Virus record (IMG/VR): IMGVR_UViG_3300045988_048834
Location: 1 to 38,438 of that record
Source of the DNA: a virus
Length of the DNA stretch: 38,438 nucleotides
Direction: 5' to 3' (one strand)
This document shows positions 1 through 38,438 of this stretch, in pieces. The notes beneath the pieces were generated by a model. The model saw nothing but the letters and a program-made list of their open reading frames with translations, had not been told where the DNA came from and did no database searches. The position numbers and the translations under genes were made by a program. Position 1 is the stretch's first letter. The number at the start of each line of letters is the position of its first letter.

Positions 1-544
1 GGTAACGTCGTAGCTGATACGGTACAGGCCGCTGCATTCCACCTCAAAGCCGCCGGTATTCGTTTTCAACGCACACCCGGTGTCAGTGTTAAGGATGCCC
101 AGCACATTCACCGGCGTGCCTGCCGCCACAAAAGCCTGCGCCGCGTTGTTGTAGGCGTTCTGGGCGCTCTTGTAATGCGGATTCTTCAACTTTCGATTGC
201 AAGCCATCTTGAAATCTCCTTTCAAAAAATGCCCGCACAGCTATTGCCGTGCGGGCGTCGCTGTTACAGCGGTTTTTATGCGCACGCAGCGCAGCCGCCG
301 CCGCAGAACGGGGACGGACCGGCGTTGTAGGCATAGCCGGTGGGGTAGCGGACGACGCCGGTCATCTGGCCCGCCAGCTCCAGCGCGCTGACCTTGTCGC
401 GCAGCTGCTGGATGGTGTTGGCCTGCATCAGGGCGCGGGTCTGCTCGCCCTCGGAATGGATCGCCGTGGTGATGTCGCAGGTCTGCCGATCCATCTGGGC
501 CGACAGGTTGGCCATAGCCAGGCGGTTCTCGCAGCAGCAGCCGG
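1..544. repeat. Terminal direct repeat, copy 1 (identical to 37895..38438)
   Basis: The sequence and ORF track repeat with an offset of 37,894 (e.g. ORF 89..334 equals 37983..38228). Bases 1..207 are a truncated copy of the 5' part of CDS 37661..38101. The repeat ends inside CDS 276..917. Confidence 0.95.
224..256 (-). terminator. Rho-independent terminator-like hairpin between CDS 276..917 and the next minus-strand gene (second copy at 38118..38150)
   Basis: GCCCGCAC (231-238) pairs with GTGCGGGC (249-256) around a 10-nt loop. On the minus strand a U-run follows (plus-strand A6 at 224-229). Confidence 0.55.
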
Positions 545-2582: not shown

Positions 2583-2632
2583 AAAAAGCGCCCCTCCCGT
2601 GTCCACCATGGACACAAGGAGGGGCGCTTTTT
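2583..2632. terminator. Bidirectional rho-independent terminator with the GTGTCC-N5-GGACAC palindrome at its tip
   Basis: AAAAAGCGCCCCTCC (2583-2597) pairs with GGAGGGGCGCTTTTT (2618-2632). The inner stem is GTGTCCA-cca-TGGACAC. It lies between convergent CDS 2090..2578 (+) and 2631..2828 (-). Confidence 0.8.
2599..2615. repeat. GTGTCC-N5-GGACAC palindrome, perfect copy
   Basis: gtgtcc accat ggacac; forms the tip of the terminator hairpin. Confidence 0.95.
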
Positions 2633-14201: not shown

Positions 14202-14233
14202 CCAAAAATGGCCCGGCATTTCTGCCGGGCCAT
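14202..14233 (-). terminator. Strong hairpin plus U-run just upstream of the major tail gene
   Basis: ATGGCCCGGCA (14208-14218) pairs with TGCCGGGCCAT (14223-14233) around a 4-nt loop. On the minus strand a U-run follows and then the RBS. Confidence 0.5.
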
Positions 14234-19197: not shown

Positions 19198-20859
19198 TCA
19201 CCACGCGATGGCCCCGATGGGCGGCGGCTGCGCCGTCTCCCCGGTCCCAAGCTCCGGCTCCACCACCATGCTGGCGACCAGCGCCATCCACGGGTCGGTT
19301 TTCCGGCTCTTGGCCTCGATCTTCGCGTAAATAAAATTGCCGGTGTCCACGCCCAGTTTCCGGCTGCTGCGCACCCGCTTGGTATTATTCACAGCCCACC
19401 GCAGGCAGGGGTTGTTCCCCCAACAGAACTGCTCTCGGTCGAAGCATTCCTGAATCACCGGTTCAATGCTCATAATGTCACTGGGCCGCACCAACTTTAC
19501 GCGCTCCTTGTCGTTGGCGTCAAAGCCGATCTTGCGCAGCGCCTCGCTCATCATGGTCCACCGGTAATGGTCCATGGCCAGCTTGCGGATGCTATACTTC
19601 TGCGCAGCCTCCCGGATGTAGGCAGCCAGCAGATCGGGGTGGATGCTCACGTCCTCCACCACCGTCACCAGTCCGTCCGCGGCCCATGCCTGCCACGGGG
19701 CCTTTACCCGCGTCAGCGTCTTGCTCTCCCGACACAGCCAGGCGTGGTTGATGTCGTACCGCATCGCCCCGCGGCGGAAGTGCAGGTTCACCGCCGCCCA
19801 GTCGTTCAGCTCGGCGTAGTCGATGCCCACCGTGCAGCTCCAGCCGCGCAGCTCCGGCAGCGGCTTATTCGTCGCCTTGATCTTCTCGTAGCTGGTGACG
19901 CTCACTTCCTTTACGCCCTCGCGCAGTCCCATCCGCTTTGTGGGGAAGTCGCCGTTCTGCTCAGGGTGCTCGCACCAGTCCTTGTACTCATCCGCGATCT
20001 CCTGCTGCAAATTCGGAAAGTAATGCAGGGATGGGTTCGCCATCGTCCAGTTCTCGGGGTCGTGGATTTGCCCCTTCTCCGTCAATCGGCAGATAAACGG
20101 CAGAAAGCCGTTGTCCGCCTCGCCGTCGTACAAAATGCGCAGCCCGCGGGCCAGGTAGTCATCAAACGGCCCGTCGCTTACGTCACCGTTGGAGCTAAAG
20201 ATGCCGCACCGCGGCTGGGCGACCTTGCCCAGGCCCGTCGTAAACACCTTGATGTTGTCGTAGTTCTCATAAGCGTGCACCTCGTTGAAGATGATTTTGC
20301 CGCTGCGCATACCGTCGCGGCCCTTGGGGTTGTTGGTCCGCCCTTTCATCACGCCCTTATTCTTCCGTCCCTGGATGATCTCCTTGGTGTGGTAATAGTG
20401 GCGGTTCAGTTTTGTGGCCCATTTTGTGGATTCCAACACCTCCACCAAATCGCGGCTCGGCTGCGTGGCCTGGTCCTCGTTGTTGGCGCACACGTCAACG
20501 TTGTAGTGCCCCACCGGGTTGTAGGGCGACAGCGAGCATGCGGAATCAAAGGCAATGTATCCATCCTTGCCCGCGCCGCGTCCCACAAAGCAGAAAACAG
20601 TTTTCCACCGCGGCGTACCGTCGGCCCGGTAGGTGCAGTTCCACAGGACCAATAAAAATTTTTCCCACGGCAGCAAATCGCCGTAGGGGAAATATTTGAC
20701 GAGGCCCAGGTATTTCGCCGCCTGGGCCTCGTCAACGTAAATATTCTCGTTTTCAAACACCCGCCGCACATAGGCGGCCAGCGCTTTTTGTTCTGCCCCC
20801 ACGCGGAAGGGCTTGTCGGTCTCGCAGCTCTCCACGTAGGCCAGCACCTCGGGGGGCAT
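19198..20859 (-). CDS. terL: Terminase large subunit
   Basis: Walker-A-like VGRGAGKDGY and a C-terminal nuclease region. I prefer the ATG at 20859, directly after the TerS stop. The ORF track allows starts up to 20901. Confidence 0.85.
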   Translation of the reverse strand: MPPEVLAYVESCETDKPFRVGAEQKALAAYVRRVFENENIYVDEAQAAKYLGLVKYFPYGDLLPWEKFLLVLWNCTYRADGTPRWKTVFCFVGRGAGKDGYIAFDSACSLSPYNPVGHYNVDVCANNEDQATQPSRDLVEVLESTKWATKLNRHYYHTKEIIQGRKNKGVMKGRTNNPKGRDGMRSGKIIFNEVHAYENYDNIKVFTTGLGKVAQPRCGIFSSNGDVSDGPFDDYLARGLRILYDGEADNGFLPFICRLTEKGQIHDPENWTMANPSLHYFPNLQQEIADEYKDWCEHPEQNGDFPTKRMGLREGVKEVSVTSYEKIKATNKPLPELRGWSCTVGIDYAELNDWAAVNLHFRRGAMRYDINHAWLCRESKTLTRVKAPWQAWAADGLVTVVEDVSIHPDLLAAYIREAAQKYSIRKLAMDHYRWTMMSEALRKIGFDANDKERVKLVRPSDIMSIEPVIQECFDREQFCWGNNPCLRWAVNNTKRVRSSRKLGVDTGNFIYAKIEAKSRKTDPWMALVASMVVEPELGTGETAQPPPIGAIAW

Positions 20860-20860
20860 T

Positions 20861-21217
20861 CTACAGCTCATCATCCTCACCGCCATTCTGCGGCTTGGCA
20901 CTGTTCGCCTGCTCCCGGAATCCCAGCGCCGTCCAGATGTTCAGCATCTGGGCGGACACGCGCGTGGCAATGGTCAGGCTTTTATTCTCGGTGGTGCCCA
21001 TCTGGTTCGCGCCGTTCTGGTATTTCACATAAACACCGCGGTCCACCACGTCATCGTTGAGCATCTGCAGCCAGCTCCACAGGTTGATGTACTCCTCCAC
21101 CTTGTCCGTATATTGGGTTCCCACCAGCCCGCGGACCTCCAGGTCGTCCAACATGTCCTGCTTCAGCTTTTTGCAGGCATCCCGTTCCAGATACTCATTT
21201 TTCTTCTTCCGCGCCAC
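20861..21217 (-). CDS. terS: Terminase small subunit (P27-family-like)
   Basis: I prefer the GTG at 21217 (RBS AGAGGGTGA). The ORF-track start at 21274 lies in a G-rich tract. Pattern LEVRGLVGTQYTDKVEEYINLW ... TTENKSLTIATRVSAQML. Confidence 0.7.
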   Translation of the reverse strand: MARKKKNEYLERDACKKLKQDMLDDLEVRGLVGTQYTDKVEEYINLWSWLQMLNDDVVDRGVYVKYQNGANQMGTTENKSLTIATRVSAQMLNIWTALGFREQANSAKPQNGGEDDEL

Positions 21218-21375
21218 CAAATCACCCTCTTTCCCTTCGTCACGCGCCCTTTTCTCTCTCCACACCCACCCCACCCCTCACGCCCAACCCCTTCCCCTCC
21301 CGAATGTCTCGGACCCATTCGAGTTGGAAGCCGCTGGAAATTGTTGGTTTTTTCGTGGGGGGGGGTATCGCGCAA

Positions 21376-21726
21376 TTAATCCCATCTTTCCGCCGTGATT
21401 GGCGGCTCTTTCGGCAAAAATTGCGTAAAACTTTCCGGGTGAAGTTCTTCATGGCACTGTTTGCACACGCTGACAAGCTGCCGCTCATCGCCATCCCAAA
21501 TACTAAGCGCCAAGTCCGGCCTATCCCGCAAATGCTTTACATGATGCACCAACATCGCGTGCTTGTATCTGTGTTTCAGTTCACGGCAGCGCTGACACTC
21601 GCCTTTATCCAGGGCCAGCACTTCAGCGCGAACTGCCCGCCATTGCGGCCAGTAGTAGAAGTCATGCTCCGTGTCCGCGGCAATCATCTTCTTCAACCGC
21701 GCCAGATCATACGGATTTATTGCCAT
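21376..21726 (-). CDS. HNH endonuclease (terminase-associated)
   Basis: CQRCRELKHRYKHAMLVHHVKHL ... CKQCHEELH. It is adjacent to terS, as in cos-type HNH phages. Confidence 0.85.
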   Translation of the reverse strand: MAINPYDLARLKKMIAADTEHDFYYWPQWRAVRAEVLALDKGECQRCRELKHRYKHAMLVHHVKHLRDRPDLALSIWDGDERQLVSVCKQCHEELHPESFTQFLPKEPPITAERWD

Positions 21727-21729
21727 TAC

Positions 21730-22935
21730 TCACGTGTCCACCCCGGACACATCCTCAAAGCTCATTTGTATCCCCGCCCCCAGCCTTTCATAATATTCGC
21801 CCTCAAAACGCTCTTGCACAAACAGCCTCTCGCAATTCTCGCTGCTGCCGTTCCCTGTGCCCAACAGTTTCCGCTTTTTGATGTTTGCCACCTCAACGCA
21901 GCCTGCCGGGCAACTGTACTCACTTATAATCACCATGTACGGCACGCTCGCCAGCCATGTATCAAATCGCTCATGATCAAACATGCCGCCGTACCCTTCC
22001 TGGGCCGTCCCGCGGTAGGGCGGATCGGCATAAACCACAGCCCCGCGCGGCACCTCGACCCTTTCGTAATCGCCTTGCAGCCTTTCCAGCCTTTCCAGAC
22101 TTTGCAGCCTTTGCAGCCTTTGCAGACTTTGCAGCCTTTGCAGACTTTGCAGCCTTTGCCTTAATCTGTACAAGCCGATAATTTTATTATAATCTTTCGT
22201 CAGCGCAGGCATAAAAGCCTGCATCTTCTCGTAGTATTCCTGCGTAGGGAAAGCCCATTGACTGCGCCCAAAATAGTGCCCGGCCATCTGTGTCCCCAGC
22301 CTTATCTGCACCTCCGACTGCGTCATGCCGCTGCTTTTCAAGCCCGCTAGCAAATACGCTCGCAGCTGCTCTTCTTCTGCGGCCATTTCCCGCTCGTTGT
22401 TTTTTATCAGCTCGTCCAACTCCGCCGGGGTGTACCGCTGCTGCCCTAACCACCATCGGATATATTTCTCTTTATATTCGTCATGGTGAGCCAAAACGTC
22501 CGCCGCGCTCCCGTCGGAATTGATTCCAATCTCGCGCAGAGGCCCGGTATCGCCAAGGACGCGCGCATAATGCAGCGCTCGCTTCCACGGCTCGACCTCT
22601 TCGACGTATAAATAATTGCTTCGATTATTTCCAAAGCTCCAACACAGGCTGACGTAGGGGTCGGCGTCTTTTAGCTGGTAGAAATCCTCCCGGCTGATCC
22701 ACCGCCTTTCGTCCGCGTACCGTCCATGCGCGGCGTTCAAAAACACATTCGGCGCGTCGCCGATGTCATTGGCAATGTATCTGTCCCATCGCCCGGCCAG
22801 CAGCGCCGCGTGCGTTACCGCACAGCCTCCCGCAAATAAATCCACAAGCGTATGGCCCGACGGCAAATGCTCCACTACCCACTCGGCTATTTTATTTTTG
22901 CTTCCCTGGTAAGGCACTCCGTACCGCATACGCAC
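21730..22935 (-). CDS. N6-adenine DNA methyltransferase (D12/Dam class) with an internal RLQ/SLQ repeat
   Basis: YQGSKNKIAEWV, DLFAGGCAV (FxGxG) and VYADPPYRG (DPPY). Confidence 0.8.
   Translation of the reverse strand: MRMRYGVPYQGSKNKIAEWVVEHLPSGHTLVDLFAGGCAVTHAALLAGRWDRYIANDIGDAPNVFLNAAHGRYADERRWISREDFYQLKDADPYVSLCWSFGNNRSNYLYVEEVEPWKRALHYARVLGDTGPLREIGINSDGSAADVLAHHDEYKEKYIRWWLGQQRYTPAELDELIKNNEREMAAEEEQLRAYLLAGLKSSGMTQSEVQIRLGTQMAGHYFGRSQWAFPTQEYYEKMQAFMPALTKDYNKIIGLYRLRQRLQSLQRLQSLQRLQRLQSLERLERLQGDYERVEVPRGAVVYADPPYRGTAQEGYGGMFDHERFDTWLASVPYMVIISEYSCPAGCVEVANIKKRKLLGTGNGSSENCERLFVQERFEGEYYERLGAGIQMSFEDVSGVDT
21734..21750. repeat. GTGTCC-N5-GGACAC palindrome, perfect copy
   Basis: gtgtcc acccc ggacac; lies in the last codons of the methyltransferase gene, 8 nt upstream of the HNH ATG. 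Confidence 0.95.
22073..22160 (-). repeat. About 10 tandem 9-bp repeats (CTTTGCAGC, CTTTCCAGC, CTTTGCAGA) inside the methyltransferase gene
   Basis: Read directly from the sequence. The repeats encode RLQSLQRLQSLQRLQRLQSLERLERLQ, between the SAM-binding and DPPY motifs. Confidence 0.9.
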
Positions 22936-23280
22936 CTCAAAATCAACTAGCTGCCCAGCGGCGCGAGACGGAGTATATTGGTCTCGATGTAGGTGTGTCT
23001 CTCCCGCCCGCCGGGCATGGCGGTCTATATTCCCGCCCGTCAGCCGCTACTTCTTTTTCTTTTCACGCCAGCGGCTTGCGTGCTGGCACCACACCCGGGT
23101 CTCACACCCAACCCGCGCCGTTGCTTGCGGCGCGCGGTGCCCATCCCGCCGGGCATTTCTGCAGGTGGCTGTGCGGCATAGTGTCCGGCATTTCAACCGG
23201 ACGGCGGGAGCTTCATCGTGGCGACGCCGCATCACGCAGCGCAGCACCCGTACCACGAGGAGGATTACGACGACATGCGC

Positions 23281-23319
23281 CAAAATCAAAATCCGCAGGG
23301 CATCTCTGTCCCGCGGATT
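23281..23319 (-). terminator. Promoter-proximal intrinsic terminator-like hairpin
   Basis: On the minus strand AATCCGC(G)GGG pairs with CCCGCGGATT around a 9-nt loop and is followed by TTGATTTTG. It starts a few nt after the predicted transcription start. Confidence 0.5.
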
Positions 23320-23330
23320 CTGATACTACC

Positions 23331-23376
23331 ATTATACGCCTTTCGCGATGGACATCAAGGGACATCAGTGGACATC
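23331..23376 (-). promoter_or_regulatory. Putative late promoter with three 10-bp-phased GGACATC half-sites
   Basis: The minus strand reads GATGTCCactGATGTCCcttGATGTCCatcgcgaaaggcgTATAAT. The -35-like TTGATG (23358..23353) and TATAAT (23336..23331) are 16 nt apart. Repeats start at 23350, 23360 and 23370. Confidence 0.5.
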
Positions 23377-23801
23377 TTTAGCGCGTTCACAATTTTATCG
23401 TGCTTTCTGCGCACCTGTCGGCTGCAATAGCCCATGGCCCTGCCGACCTCCCGCCAGGTCTGCCCCAGCAGGTAGCGGCGGCGCATCAGCTCGTAGTCAT
23501 CGGCTGCCGGTATCGTCTCCAGCACGGTGGCCACCTCCCGGCGTACCGCGCTGCATACGCTCAGCTGCTCCTCCACCCTGGCCCGCGCCGCATCGATGCG
23601 CTCCACCGCCCGCGGCAGGGCCTGGCCGTCGCTGGCCCCGCCGGGCATTCCGCTCAGGTTGGCCGTTACGCGGCACGCATCAGCGCGCAGCTCCCGGACC
23701 TCTTCCTCATAGAGGCGCTCCAACCGACAGGCGTCCAGGTAGCGGTACAGCCATTGCACCCGCAGGGCCCGTACCCGCCGGGTCTCCTCCTCACAGCTCA
23801 C
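23355..23801 (-). CDS. Sigma-70 region-4-like phage transcription regulator (RinA/ArpU/DUF1492-type candidate)
   Basis: 148 aa. The C-terminal RRRYLLGQTWREVGRAMGYCSRQVRRKHDKIV resembles a region-4 HTH. The gene sits directly upstream of the putative late promoter. Confidence 0.6.
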   Translation of the reverse strand: MSCEEETRRVRALRVQWLYRYLDACRLERLYEEEVRELRADACRVTANLSGMPGGASDGQALPRAVERIDAARARVEEQLSVCSAVRREVATVLETIPAADDYELMRRRYLLGQTWREVGRAMGYCSRQVRRKHDKIVNALKMSTDVP

Positions 23802-25201
23802 CCGACACCACCTCCCTGCACTTTCTTCAGGTCGTCGGCCAGATAGCTTTCAATGCCCGCGCCGGTGCTGTACCAGCGCTTGTACCGTTCCAGCGCATTA
23901 ATGTCTCCGTCCCGCCCTGCGCGCTCGCCGTTCGGCCCGAGGCGCACTGCGAAGCACTCGCGGTATTGAAAGCCGTTCACATGGCAGGAAAAGCGCGCCA
24001 GATCATCCACGGCAATGATAAGCCGCCCGCCGTCTGCCATCTTCCGCTCACGGATCGTCAGGCCCAGGTCCTTCAGCCGCGTCACAAGCGGCCAGCTGTC
24101 AAACGCCTCCAGCTCCTGCCGGGCCAGCGCCTGCCACTTTTCGGCCTCCTCCTGCCGGGCACGCTCCTGATTACGCTTGCCCTTCACCTCGGCCTTGTAC
24201 GCCGCCAGATCGTCCATGTTGATGTACAGACGCTTAGCGGCATCGAAGAAGTCCCGAGGATACAGCAGGCTCTCTGCCAGCACCTCATCCGTATCGGCAG
24301 GGTCCCGCATCTGTACCCGGACGCCGCGGGAATCGACAGGCTCAATGTGCAGCAGCGCATCCGTCTCACTCTCGGTCAGATTCAGCGTCACCGGCTCCAG
24401 CTTTCGGGCATTCAGCCCATGGTCAGCGTAGTTCCATTCGCTCTTGCGAACGTAGTCGAGCTTCTTCAGCTGGTCAGCCAGGCCGCACTCGACCAGATAC
24501 TTGATGGCCGCCCGCCGAGCCAGAGCGGTGATGGGCGGCATGCCGGCGTACCCGTTTCTGGCGTGTTCTGCCTGCTGCACCTTGTACAGCTTGCTGCACT
24601 CATAGGCGCGGGTCATCGTGATCTCGCCTTTTTCCAACATTTGCACAACCTCGGCTGTGCAATTATTGAGAATCGCGTTGAATCTTCCCAGCGTCCCGGT
24701 GCCGTCTCCGGTAATGCGGCTCATCTCATCACGGATTCGGCCATCGAGCGCGCCCGCTGCCTTTTTGCGTTCAAGCGCCTGCTTGAGTGCCCGGTACTGG
24801 CGCAGCCGCTCACCGTCCGTCAGCTCGCGCGCCGTGGCGTTGGAGGTGATCAGCGCGATCAGGTCATCATCCACGCCCTGGCTTTGGTGGATGACACAGG
24901 GCAGGACTTCAAACCCGGTCACGCCCTCAACCGTCAGCGCCTGGCACGCGGTCCAACGGCGGTGTCCGGCCAGCAGCATATATTTACCGTTCTGGGCGGG
25001 CAGGACCTCCAGCGGGCTGCGCAGTCCCCGCTCGGCAATGTCCGCCTTGAGCATCGACACATCCCCGATCTCGTAGATGCTGTTCTCCGGGTTCGGCTCA
25101 ATATCGGCGGCGGGCAGCATGACGATCTGCATCTTCTGCCCCGCCGGGGCGTTGGCTTTTGTGTTGCCGAGAATGTCGTTGATAGAAAATCCCTTGCTCA
25201 T
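23798..25201 (-). CDS. parB: ParB-like N-terminal-domain protein with a long unknown C-terminal region
   Basis: NPENSIYEIGDVSMLKADIAERGLRSPLEVLPAQNGKYMLLAGHRRWTA is the ParB/Srx fold with the GHRR arginine patch. It is encoded directly after parA. Confidence 0.75.
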   Translation of the reverse strand: MSKGFSINDILGNTKANAPAGQKMQIVMLPAADIEPNPENSIYEIGDVSMLKADIAERGLRSPLEVLPAQNGKYMLLAGHRRWTACQALTVEGVTGFEVLPCVIHQSQGVDDDLIALITSNATARELTDGERLRQYRALKQALERKKAAGALDGRIRDEMSRITGDGTGTLGRFNAILNNCTAEVVQMLEKGEITMTRAYECSKLYKVQQAEHARNGYAGMPPITALARRAAIKYLVECGLADQLKKLDYVRKSEWNYADHGLNARKLEPVTLNLTESETDALLHIEPVDSRGVRVQMRDPADTDEVLAESLLYPRDFFDAAKRLYINMDDLAAYKAEVKGKRNQERARQEEAEKWQALARQELEAFDSWPLVTRLKDLGLTIRERKMADGGRLIIAVDDLARFSCHVNGFQYRECFAVRLGPNGERAGRDGDINALERYKRWYSTGAGIESYLADDLKKVQGGGVG

Positions 25202-25204
25202 CGC

Positions 25205-25987
25205 TCAGCCCTCCTTTGTGTCCACATTGGACACGATCTCGTCGACCTCACCGGCCAGCGCCTTGTAATCGTCCGTGGCCGTACATTTCGGCGCGAACTC
25301 CCGCAGCGGCTTGTGGGCGCTCTTGGCCTCGCTGACCTTGACCGTGTAGCGGATGACCGTTCGCAGCATCGGGACGCCCTGTGCACTCAGCTGCCGGATA
25401 ACGTCCGCCGCGTATTTGGTGTGACGATATTTTGTCATCATCGCGCCCATAATCTTAAGCCGCGGATTGTAATACATCTGGACGCGCTCGATCTGGTCGA
25501 TGATCTCGTCCATGCCATCGCACGCCCACTCGTCACAGTCCACCGGGATGATGACCCAGTCCGCCGCGCACAGGGCGTTGATGCTTCCCATGTCCAGATC
25601 GGGCGGGCAGTCCAGCAGGCAATAGTCGTAATTCTCGGCCACATGCTCCAGCGCATCCCGCAGGCGGTACTGCTGCGGCTCGGTGGTATCCATCAGGATC
25701 ATGCGGTTGGCTTTGAGAAGCCGCATATCACCGGGCAGCAGGTGGACGCCGGGCAGGCCGGTATCCTCGACGATGGCGGCGTTGGCGAAGCGCTCGCCCA
25801 GCAGCACCTCGGCCACCGATAGGCGGTCATAATCGAGCCAGCCGAAAAACTTGCTTGTGTTGCCCTGTTTATCCAGGTCCACCACCAGAACGCTCTTGCT
25901 CTTGGCGGCCAATTCGGCGGCCAGGTTGCAGGCGGTGACGGATTTCCCGACGCCGCCCTTCAAGTTGATGATTGCGATTTTGTCCAT
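25205..25987 (-). CDS. parA: ParA-family partition ATPase
   Basis: The deviant Walker A KGGVGKS lies in MDKIAIINLKGGVGKSVTACNLA. 260 aa. Confidence 0.85.
   Translation of the reverse strand: MDKIAIINLKGGVGKSVTACNLAAELAAKSKSVLVVDLDKQGNTSKFFGWLDYDRLSVAEVLLGERFANAAIVEDTGLPGVHLLPGDMRLLKANRMILMDTTEPQQYRLRDALEHVAENYDYCLLDCPPDLDMGSINALCAADWVIIPVDCDEWACDGMDEIIDQIERVQMYYNPRLKIMGAMMTKYRHTKYAADVIRQLSAQGVPMLRTVIRYTVKVSEAKSAHKPLREFAPKCTATDDYKALAGEVDEIVSNVDTKEG
25218..25234. repeat. GTGTCC-N5-GGACAC palindrome, perfect copy
   Basis: gtgtcc acatt ggacac; lies in the last codons of parA, abutting the parB RBS. Confidence 0.95.
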
Positions 25988-35754: not shown

Positions 35755-35798
35755 AAAAATCCCGCAGCGTTACCAGCACCGCGGGATAGAATATCAGC

Positions 35799-35815
35799 GT
35801 GTCCGAGGTGGACAC
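35799..35815. repeat. GTGTCC-N5-GGACAC palindrome, perfect copy
   Basis: gtgtcc gaggt ggacac; intergenic, 64 nt upstream of the int ATG. Confidence 0.95.
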
Positions 35816-35878
35816 AAACCGAAAACCATTTAGATTATACCACCTCCGGCACGATTCGACAAGTATCGGAGGTTAATT

Positions 35879-37660: not shown

Positions 37661-38101
37661 TCACGCAAGCTTTACGATGCTGGCGCAGACGTGGTTCACT
37701 GTCCCGGCCACGCCGCCGACGACAGCGTTGATCGTCGGTGTGCCATTGCAGCAGACCGGAATATAAACCGTCGTCTCCGTGTGCAGCGTCACGACGTCGT
37801 TGGCGGCTACGGTTGCCTGCGCACTCATGCAGGGCAGCGCGATGGTATCCTTGTACCCTTGCAGCGTCACCGTGCCCGCCGCAGTAGCCGTGGCGGTAAC
37901 GTCGTAGCTGATACGGTACAGGCCGCTGCATTCCACCTCAAAGCCGCCGGTATTCGTTTTCAACGCACACCCGGTGTCAGTGTTAAGGATGCCCAGCACA
38001 TTCACCGGCGTGCCTGCCGCCACAAAAGCCTGCGCCGCGTTGTTGTAGGCGTTCTGGGCGCTCTTGTAATGCGGATTCTTCAACTTTCGATTGCAAGCCA
38101 T
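37661..38101 (-). CDS. Small Cys-containing beta-rich protein with a C1q/TNF-jellyroll-like signature (weak call)
   Basis: The ATG at 38101 has RBS AAAGGAG. GLYRISYDVTATATAAGTVTLQ resembles the G-x-Y-x-hydrophobic strand pattern of C1q/BclA-CTD-type jellyrolls. The protein has 8 Cys. Confidence 0.5.
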   Translation of the reverse strand: MACNRKLKNPHYKSAQNAYNNAAQAFVAAGTPVNVLGILNTDTGCALKTNTGGFEVECSGLYRISYDVTATATAAGTVTLQGYKDTIALPCMSAQATVAANDVVTLHTETTVYIPVCCNGTPTINAVVGGVAGTVNHVCASIVKLA

Positions 38102-38438
38102 CTTGAAATCTCCTTTCAAAAAATGCCCGCACAGCTATTGCCGTGCGGGCGTCGCTGTTACAGCGGTTTTTATGCGCACGCAGCGCAGCCGCCGCCGCAG
38201 AACGGGGACGGACCGGCGTTGTAGGCATAGCCGGTGGGGTAGCGGACGACGCCGGTCATCTGGCCCGCCAGCTCCAGCGCGCTGACCTTGTCGCGCAGCT
38301 GCTGGATGGTGTTGGCCTGCATCAGGGCGCGGGTCTGCTCGCCCTCGGAATGGATCGCCGTGGTGATGTCGCAGGTCTGCCGATCCATCTGGGCCGACAG
38401 GTTGGCCATAGCCAGGCGGTTCTCGCAGCAGCAGCCGG
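37895..38438. repeat. Terminal direct repeat, copy 2 (identical to 1..544)
   Basis: Same as copy 1. Both boundaries fall inside coding sequences, which fits an assembly overlap of a circular or permuted molecule rather than att sites. Confidence 0.95.

Follow-up and report, generated by a model that had tools for sequence, protein, structure and literature searches.

The Ltr superfamily of late transcriptional regulators comprises RinA, ArpU, LtrA (Sigma70_r4), LtrB (DUF1492) and LtrC. These proteins are small, basic and encoded just upstream of terS, the gene for the small terminase subunit; 7-nt repeats just distal to the ltr genes are read by the C-terminus of the protein and are necessary and sufficient for specificity, and ltr is separated from terS by a terminator (Quiles-Puchalt et al., 2013; PMC3753634). 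In staphylococcal phages, RinA requires sequence that lies over 155 bp ahead of the 5′ end mapped for terS, a terminator separating the two, by a mechanism that was termed ‘more complex’ (Ferrer et al., 2011; PMC3152322), and the 59-nt RinA repeat block functions when fused to unrelated downstream DNA. Here we analyze a locus of this kind in the IMG/VR virus record IMGVR_UViG_3300045988_048834 (38,438 nt, hereafter the window), in which the gene for a 148-aa protein, called ltr below, is followed by phased repeats, a -10 element and a hairpin, with all elements of the switch on the minus strand. We assign a probability of about 0.6 to a four-step explanation in which this locus is, as a whole, an Ltr-type (RinA/ArpU/LtrA-C) late-gene switch belonging to a temperate phage of Oscillospiraceae.

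In most of its anatomy the locus resembles these systems. The ltr product has the size and charge of an Ltr protein (148 aa with an isoelectric point (pI) of 8.93, against about 130–150 aa and pI > 8), and ltr itself (23355..23801; an open reading frame (ORF) whose GTG start overlaps the stop of a ParB-like gene) closes the early region just before the packaging genes, being followed by a leader and by genes for a D12 methylase, an HNH endonuclease, terS and the large terminase subunit, terL. The protein carries a C-terminal Sigma70_r4-like/DUF1492 DNA-binding domain, as judged from TIGR02937, family-wide Pfam and Foldseek matches. Three GATGTCC direct repeats, of a type that co-varies with the recognition helix, lie at the 3′ end of its own gene, where Ltr systems carry two to four copies of a direct repeat of about 7 nt, either within the gene end or immediately behind it; a terminator precedes terS and specificity appears to be set by the C-terminus in both. 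A layout with repeats in the regulator’s own gene is therefore the signature of a known family. Whereas the staphylococcal promoter was placed downstream of the terminator and more than 155 bp from the binding site, the terminator here comes after the -10 element, which itself stands 13–14 nt beyond the last repeat. Unlike in known Ltr systems, the predicted RNA begins at the foot of the terminator hairpin, and its leader holds more terminators, a pseudoknot-like block and, in relatives, tRNAs.

A preliminary description of this locus had likened it to lambdoid late control, and the likeness to Q/PR′/tR′ (Q-lambda, Q21, Q82/QuuD) holds for the layout: the regulator gene lies directly upstream of the late promoter, its predicted site is there in the form of the repeats, and a predicted intrinsic terminator (T1) stands nearby, between the promoter and about 20 kb of late genes, with a short terminated RNA as a possible by-product. 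The assignment to the Q family did not stand, since the protein shares no sequence or fold homology with Q beyond a helix-turn-helix (HTH), although a Q-like mechanism is plausible. The promoter also differs, looking activator-dependent rather than constitutive, and T1 begins at +1, whereas the lambdoid terminator is found tens to hundreds of nucleotides further on. A further parallel is Alt of the lactococcal phage TP901-1, a late activator that, according to published summaries, binds direct repeats at -76 to -32 of the late promoter upstream of terS (PMC3152322, PMC13123087). This likeness is one of arrangement, and the same summaries describe no promoter-proximal terminator for Alt.

A sigma region 4-like regulator of the Ltr/RinA superfamily

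Relatives of the locus were collected from viral, genome and metagenome collections, as prophages whose hosts are Gemmiger, Subdoligranulum and Faecalibacterium. We found 71 homologues of the 148-aa protein and aligned 67 sequences, that is, the window protein and 66 homologues. The window protein matched phrog_36 ‘transcriptional regulator’ (E = 2.8e-17), phrog_248 ‘transcriptional activator’ (E = 4.7e-5) and the sigma70-ECF region 4 model TIGR02937 (E = 2.5e-4). It matched no Pfam family above threshold, and in the 67-member family Pfam matches were to Sigma70_r4 (41/67), Sigma70_r4_2 (25/67) and DUF1492 (5/67). An AlphaFold (AF2) model (pLDDT 87) consists of a long N-terminal two-helix hairpin, whose tip loop (GMPGGxxDGQALP) is invariant, followed by three helices. 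In a Foldseek search of the PDB, these C-terminal helices superposed on the -35-binding domain (region 4) of SigD (TM 0.66–0.70), and a search of BFVD returned full-length matches (TM 0.7–0.9) to gut-phage proteins labelled DUF1492 or Sigma-70 region 4. A profile search of PDB sequences gave no meaningful match. On the strength of the phrog_36, phrog_248, Sigma70_r4 and DUF1492 matches, the AF2 model and the BFVD matches, the protein belongs, by sequence and predicted fold, to the Ltr/RinA superfamily, whose members activate the late genes of Gram-positive phages.

Two other identities were considered for the protein. A bona fide alternative sigma factor was rejected, because the N-terminal half is a two-helix hairpin and not a sigma-2 fold; with no sigma region 2 present, and with a promoter -10 of the host sigma-A type, the protein is not a complete sigma factor. 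The second is a Q protein. In a strict version of the lambda model, a constitutive promoter would yield a short terminated RNA of about 43–48 nt and a Q-type antiterminator would be loaded at the repeats, carrying polymerase past T1 and the terminators behind it. The order of gene, promoter and terminator matches such a model, and 11 of the 67 family members weakly match Phage_antitermQ (best E = 0.0013). These matches are sub-threshold and confined to the HTH. For the window protein Phage_antitermQ (PF06530) is the sole Pfam match, at E = 0.062, its 13.7 bits falling far short of the cut-off of 26; an hhalign comparison with QuuD of E. coli, a genuine PF06530 protein, gave 7% probability over the HTH only, and the PDB matches of the model included no Q fold. 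Homology to Q, as well as membership of any Q family (PF03589, PF06323 or PF06530), was accordingly dropped.

Two relatives, L046 (from about 4565 onward) and L049 (from about 4638 onward), encode a second ltr paralogue behind the leader (MEYKERIHWLGRYQD... and MTYDDKITWLRRYRA...), which suggests a two-step Ltr cascade in these phages.

Phased repeats at the end of ltr as predicted operators

The three GATGTCC copies (23376..23370, 23366..23360 and 23356..23350; together 23350..23376) are exact matches spaced exactly 10 bp apart on the minus strand. The array covers the last seven codons and the stop codon of ltr, with repeats 1 and 2 within the last codons (K-M-S-T-D-V-P) and repeat 3 overlapping the TGA stop. 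Relative to the predicted start, the ATGTCC cores lie at about -52..-47, -42..-37 and -32..-27, and the comparison of relatives places the proximal repeat at about -31..-26. The array adjoins and overlaps the -35 position and does not lie between -35 and -10.

The number, spacing and position of the repeats given in the preliminary description were confirmed, and the array proved unique in the window. A triple exact 7-mer at a 9–12 bp period occurred in 1 of 300 Markov-1 simulated genomes. The phased pair ATGTCC-N4-ATGTCC is found nowhere else in the window, and in 143 fetched loci it is confined to the 3′ end of the homologous gene. Apart from the array, the window has a single periodic repeat, a coding 9-bp tandem repeat (22100–22140; about 5 copies, plus strand) within the D12 methylase gene, where it encodes LQRLQS repeats in the middle of the methyltransferase and may be a length-variable linker.

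We next compared the repeats with the regulators that they accompany. ATGTCC is present two to four times in the window and in four relatives (L006, L007, L009 and L042), in different reading frames (KMSTDVP, KMSINVPKCP, KDVLQCPI). Other clades carry GTGATA, GCACTGTTTT, TGGACTAA, ATGTCAC or CCGGAGCAAA at 10–11 bp periods, and the repeat changes together with the recognition helix: KQVRRRH pairs with ATGTCC, YQHVCRCH with GTGATA, SRVYRRH with GCACTGTTTT, RSAVLAHH with TGGACTAA and RSQMFQHH with CCGGAGCAAA. Because of this co-variation, and in the light of the published Ltr operators (PMC3753634, PMC13123087), the phased repeats are very probably the regulator’s binding sites on a late promoter.

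An alternative raised at the outset is that the repeats form an iteron or centromere for ParA/ParB-like proteins, the -10 element and hairpin being just the end of an operon. The repeats do lie downstream of parA and a parB-like gene, and some centromeres typically consist of direct repeats in phase. In every curated relative, however, they stand at the regulator stop, including the cultured phages FP_Lugh (regulator gp17) and Aster (orf48), which have the same order of elements with a resolvase gene, not parAB, directly upstream of the regulator; in FP_Lugh, an annotated small terminase follows. The repeat sequence co-varies with the recognition helix rather than being tied to partition genes, and a 15-bp palindrome described below is a better candidate for a ParB site. 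The centromere reading fails because the repeats track the regulator and not parAB, and we consider it very improbable. A blastn search of the region against phage records returned one unannotated fragment only.

A -10 element with repeats in place of a -35 element

A promoter scan identified TTGATG-16 nt-TATAAT at 23358..23331 (10/12 matches), the combination that the preliminary description had proposed as the promoter. Both hexamers are present, but only the second survives comparison: TTGATG (23358..23353) is simply part of repeat 3, and no -35 element is kept in its place by the relatives, in which the -10 element, usually an extended TGnTATAAT, lies 13–14 nt after the last ATGTCC. Relatives that are 95% identical to the window have substitutions in the spacer, with the repeats and the -10 element unchanged. 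The -10 hexamer of the predicted Ltr-dependent late promoter thus occupies 23331..23336, and the predicted start, placed by a position rule only, is the A at 23324, the seventh nucleotide after it. Read on the minus strand, the region runs AAA GATGTCC ACT GATGTCC CT TGATGTCC ATCGCGAAAGGCG TATAAT GGTAGT and continues ATCAGAATCCGCGGG ACAGAGATG CCCTGCGGATTTTGAT TTTGG. In GTGATA-type loci the automatic -10 picker was misled, since the repeat itself contains TGATAGAAT, and those loci were curated by hand.

Many loci also have a conserved TAnnnT 2 nt after the -10 element. This hexamer could be a sigma-dependent pause signal, as the strict lambda model would have it. It would, however, sit at -4..+2 and not in the initially transcribed region (+1..+15), as it does in lambdoid phages, and the absence of a -35 element, with repeats in its place, is typical of an activator-dependent promoter. 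Together with the protein comparison above, these features make a strict Q-type switch unlikely.

The same order of elements was seen in the staphylococcal phage 80alpha (L061), in which the rinA stop, two TGGCAGT repeats, -10-like elements, a terminator and terS follow one another. Within its 59-nt RinA repeat block (1722–1775), TAAAAT, TATTAT and TATGAT come right after the two repeats, and these -10-like hexamers (about 1745–1775) lie upstream of the terminator (1836–1859). Such positions would fit a promoter located at the repeats instead of behind the terminator.

A hairpin at the first nucleotide of the predicted transcript

The preliminary description had noted a GC-rich hairpin and U-run just after the predicted start, and this element, T1, is real, conserved and covarying. 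In folding predictions, RNA begun at 23324 is base-paired from its first nucleotide, forming a 15-bp stem (23324..23285; GC core 23318..23291) followed by UUUGG (predicted free energy, dG, about -27 to -28 kcal/mol; z = -4.2), and none of 200 shuffled sequences folded as well. With its tail, UUUGAUUUUGG, T1 spans 23280..23324. A simple terminator scan overlooked it because the loop exceeds that scan’s 8-nt limit, and a scan of our own recovered it. In an alignment of 14 homologues, with slid alignments as controls, 88% of cells were paired (37–57% in the controls) and 6 pairs were changed on both sides; the window has a U-A pair where its closest, 95%-identical relatives have G-C. The covariation and G.U wobbles therefore support an RNA structure of this strand.

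The position of the hairpin is as constant as its pairing. In 23 of 23 curated loci the -10 element is followed by a hairpin beginning at nucleotides 1–3 of the predicted RNA, taking the start as 7 nt after the hexamer. An automatic survey found a +1 hairpin in 66 of 94 distinct loci, 39 of these 66 with a U-rich tail. Among -10 sites of the TGn type, a +1 hairpin accompanied 43 of 66 near ltr and 24 of 114 elsewhere (Fisher p = 5e-9, uncorrected for relatedness). For mRNA decay in B. subtilis, stabilizing stem-loops must sit at the very 5′ end. A hairpin kept strictly at +1, even in loci without a U-run, therefore fits a role as a 5′ stabilizer. With the same high confidence that we place in the first three steps below, we interpret T1 as both the putative intrinsic terminator of the replication/partition-ltr operon and the 5′-terminal hairpin of the predicted late transcript.

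A structured leader separates T1 from the late genes

Between T1 and the first late gene lies a leader that is strongly structured as a whole (z = -2.7). In the 14 hand-analyzed loci for which the first late ORF could be assigned, the distance from the predicted start to this ORF is 135–841 nt and each leader holds 1–4 terminator-like hairpins. No -10-like element was found after +50 in 13 of the 14, and the remaining one (L048) has one weak match. In the window, a candidate late promoter inside or after hairpin T3 (GAGACA-18-TATACT, 23001..22972) was rejected, being unconserved even in 95%-identical relatives.

Downstream of T1, the window leader contains a pseudoknot-like block (23206..23256; alignment A4 of 7 loci), a T2-like hairpin (GUCCGG-loop-CCGGAC, 23183..23202) and T3 (22927..23016). 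The T2-like hairpin is without a U-run in the window, and its homologues in L007, L008, L042, L045 and L046 carry one. In T3 a long hairpin rich in G and C (23016..22953; about -31 kcal/mol) leads into AGCUAGUUGAUUUUG, after which come the ribosome-binding site (RBS) GAGG and the ATG (22929) that opens the first late gene. Homologous T3 hairpins are present in 12 loci (dG -31 to -44), where most copies have a strong U-tract, of up to 8 U in some, directly abutting the RBS. The base of T3 is conserved in sequence (CCCGGCAGGCG...CGCxCUGCCGGG), which suggests a specific recognition element beyond a terminator, possibly an attenuator, a processing site or a cos-related element. In relatives, HNH or terS follows directly behind the leader.

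Six relatives carry tRNA genes within the leader (L006 4942–5242; L008 4557–4631; L013 4566–4639; L043 4472–4545; L047 4549–4623; L048 1052–1126). These tRNAs (Tyr and Leu, Gly, Trp) lie between terminator-like hairpins without a recognizable promoter of their own, and the one in L043 starts no more than about 10 nt from where T1 ends.

The pseudoknot-like block is of the H type, lies between T1 and T2, opens with a conserved CCUCC and has homologues in L008, L009, L042, L046, L048 and L049. Its helix A joins GUGGU (23256..23252) to GCCAC (23222..23218), with 100% of pairs kept and 3 double changes, and helix B joins GGGUGC (23249..23244) to GCUCCC (23211..23206), 83% paired with 4 double changes. 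Such covariation-supported leader structures, in a leader this strongly folded, would suit a model in which Ltr does no more than activate initiation, and in which the leader serves as a cis-acting antiterminator or regulated attenuator in the style of HK022 put or B. subtilis EAR, or is passed with the help of a factor from the host or the phage. The block is, however, absent from L010, L043 and L053–L059, which keep T1 and T3, and being downstream of T1 it would be of no help to a polymerase passing T1. Rfam searches of the window region and 16 relatives returned only tRNAs and one abiF-motif match, with nothing for T1, the block or T3 and no similarity to known antiterminator RNAs. RNA- or host factor-based read-through therefore seems improbable to us. 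The abiF match, in the late leader of a Gemmiger prophage (L052 835–871), is full-length (46 bits against a gathering score of 37), and its hairpin has a CCCGGC...GCCGGG stem resembling the T3 base.

Further downstream, the late gene block itself contains a strong intrinsic terminator (UGGCCCGGCAGAAAUGCCGGGCCA + UUUUU; 14209–14232, minus strand), which is similar to the T2 of relatives and would be another site for late transcription to pass.

Proposed activation at the repeats and possible read-through

The explanation introduced above comprises four steps. First, the 148-aa protein, encoded by the last gene of the replication/partition block, would bind the three repeats via its sigma region 4-like domain, as both the comparison and the literature support. 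Second, the repeats would stand in for a -35 element and bring host sigma-A RNA polymerase to a promoter that has a -10 element alone, as the conserved anatomy suggests. Third, the late transcript would begin near 23324, right at the base of T1, a hairpin whose structure is evident and whose proposed function is to end the upstream operon; on the late RNA, T1 would act as a 5′-terminal hairpin that protects this Firmicute-type mRNA from 5′ exonuclease. Fourth, and least certain, polymerase started by Ltr would be termination-resistant, functionally Q-like, and would pass T1 and T3, which is the simplest mechanism for the read-through that the layout calls for. We hold the first three steps to be highly probable. 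Termination resistance conferred by Ltr is a more tentative proposal, to which we give rather less than an even chance.

The fourth step is suggested by the position of the late genes, which lie behind T1 and T3 with no other promoter and therefore need read-through. Since the promoter fires straight into one or more predicted terminators, the late genes probably need an antitermination step, one that is undescribed for this protein family; in the literature searched, we found no article linking RinA or Ltr with antitermination. A precedent for the proposed dual role, by analogy, is gp39 of the Thermus phage P23-45, which binds the polymerase flap, shifts the enzyme to -35-independent extended -10 promoters and suppresses intrinsic termination (PMC3351154). 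By contrast with the DNA binding predicted for Ltr, gp39 binds no DNA, and the two are unrelated in sequence.

Several observations weigh against this explanation. Start site, termination and read-through are all predictions. Ltr proteins are documented as initiation activators, not elongation factors (PMC3753634, PMC13123087); the Phi13 promoter P23 is Ltr-dependent in a reporter with only +50 nt (Phi13 Ltr 2026; PMC13123087); and the 5′ end that depends on RinA was mapped, in both phi11 and 80alpha, to a position behind the terminator, after a treatment intended to exclude processed ends (PMC3152322). In the window, only T1 passes strict terminator criteria, T3 having a 6-nt spacer before its U-rich tail. 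The U-tract of T1 (UUUUGAUUUU) is itself interrupted, so that termination there could be partial. Seven of the 23 curated loci (L006, L008, L047, L048, L049, L052 and L055) have a +1 hairpin without a U-run, so that what conserves this hairpin may be a role that has nothing to do with termination. Finally, the enrichment statistics for the +1 hairpin are inflated because the loci are phylogenetically related and their counts are not independent.

Much of this would suit a plain activator without antitermination: T1 would end the early operon and protect the late mRNA, T1 and T3 would be leaky or would not act as terminators on this polymerase, and a very strong late promoter would suffice. The published activator function, the interrupted U-tract and the solitary strict terminator are all in keeping with this, as is the placement of the hairpin within 0–2 nt of +1 even in loci without a U-run, which fits the 5′-stabilizer rule. 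Against it, most relatives have 2–4 serial terminator-like hairpins, including T3, through which passive read-through should be very low, and tRNA genes lie between terminators without a promoter of their own. On balance we consider plain activation somewhat unlikely, if only slightly less probable than termination resistance conferred by Ltr.

The neighboring genes and a dispersed palindrome

All of the elements listed in the preliminary description were found on the minus strand where it had placed them, and the order of regulator gene, phased repeats, promoter and immediate hairpin with U-run is real. The structural-gene side does begin downstream, as had been proposed: D12 adenine methylase (21730..22935) is the first gene behind the leader and is followed on the same strand by HNH endonuclease (21376..21726), terS (20861..21274) and the presumed terL (19198..20901), named from its size and its position next to terS. 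Upstream of ltr, also on the minus strand, lie parA (25205..25987) and, directly adjacent, the ParB-like gene (23798..25201); a terminator scan from these genes to ltr found no convincing terminator between them. The first 544 bases of the window (1–544) are identical to the last 544 (37895–38438). The window is thus a circularly closed assembly whose ends overlap, which leaves 37,894 bp of unique genome.

A 15-bp palindrome, TGTCCA-N3-TGGACA, is dispersed over the window in 10 copies (1226, 2600, 9304, 14243, 21735, 25219, 27070, 29030, 32033 and 35800); the pattern with a 0–12 nt spacer has 11 matches against 0.36 expected. Recognition of both the palindrome and the ltr repeats by one protein, as had been suggested from their shared letters, is not supported: the palindrome is also present in L008, L047 and L048, which have different Ltr repeats, and palindromes in GTGATA-type loci do not match the repeats there. 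The palindrome is more likely the site of another protein, e.g. the ParB-like one. The copies are candidates for operators at which the ParB-like protein acts in KorB style, or for RNA hairpins that have a part in controlling termination. One copy adjoins the internal late terminator 14232..14209, another lies in the loop of a terminator at 2632..2583, and a third lies just downstream of a strong early promoter (35862..35834) and upstream of a terminator (35787..35759).

This last site (35759–35862, minus strand) is a second promoter-then-terminator arrangement. No more than about 75 nt behind TTGTCG-17-TGgTATAAT comes a hairpin of -18 kcal/mol with UUUUUUU; its stem (AUCCCGCGG...CUGCGGGAU) resembles T1, and the site could produce a short RNA or be an early antitermination point.

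Implications for Ltr/RinA-controlled phages

Ltr/RinA regulators control packaging and lysis, and hence transduction, in a very large share of Firmicute phages, including the staphylococcal phages that mobilize pathogenicity islands. Their mode of action has been open since 2011, with binding far upstream of the mapped start and across a terminator. A broader idea, which we regard as doubtful at present, is that Ltr-type proteins, with their sigma region 4 domain on a helical hairpin, do more than activate: as processive antiterminators loaded at the promoter, they would do in Gram-positive hosts what lambda Q does, by means of a sigma-4 module. Polymerase starting at the -10 element beside the repeats would then pass both the early-operon terminator and those of the late leader. 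If true, an antiterminating Ltr could explain why RinA needs sequence more than 155 bp upstream, why a terminator intervenes and why the 59-nt block is portable. The Oscillospiraceae clade shows the anatomy cleanly, which makes the question of activator or antiterminator directly testable. It also provides an annotation rule for late promoters in the abundant and poorly studied gut phages of Faecalibacterium, Gemmiger and Subdoligranulum, of which two with this switch, FP_Lugh and Aster, are in culture.

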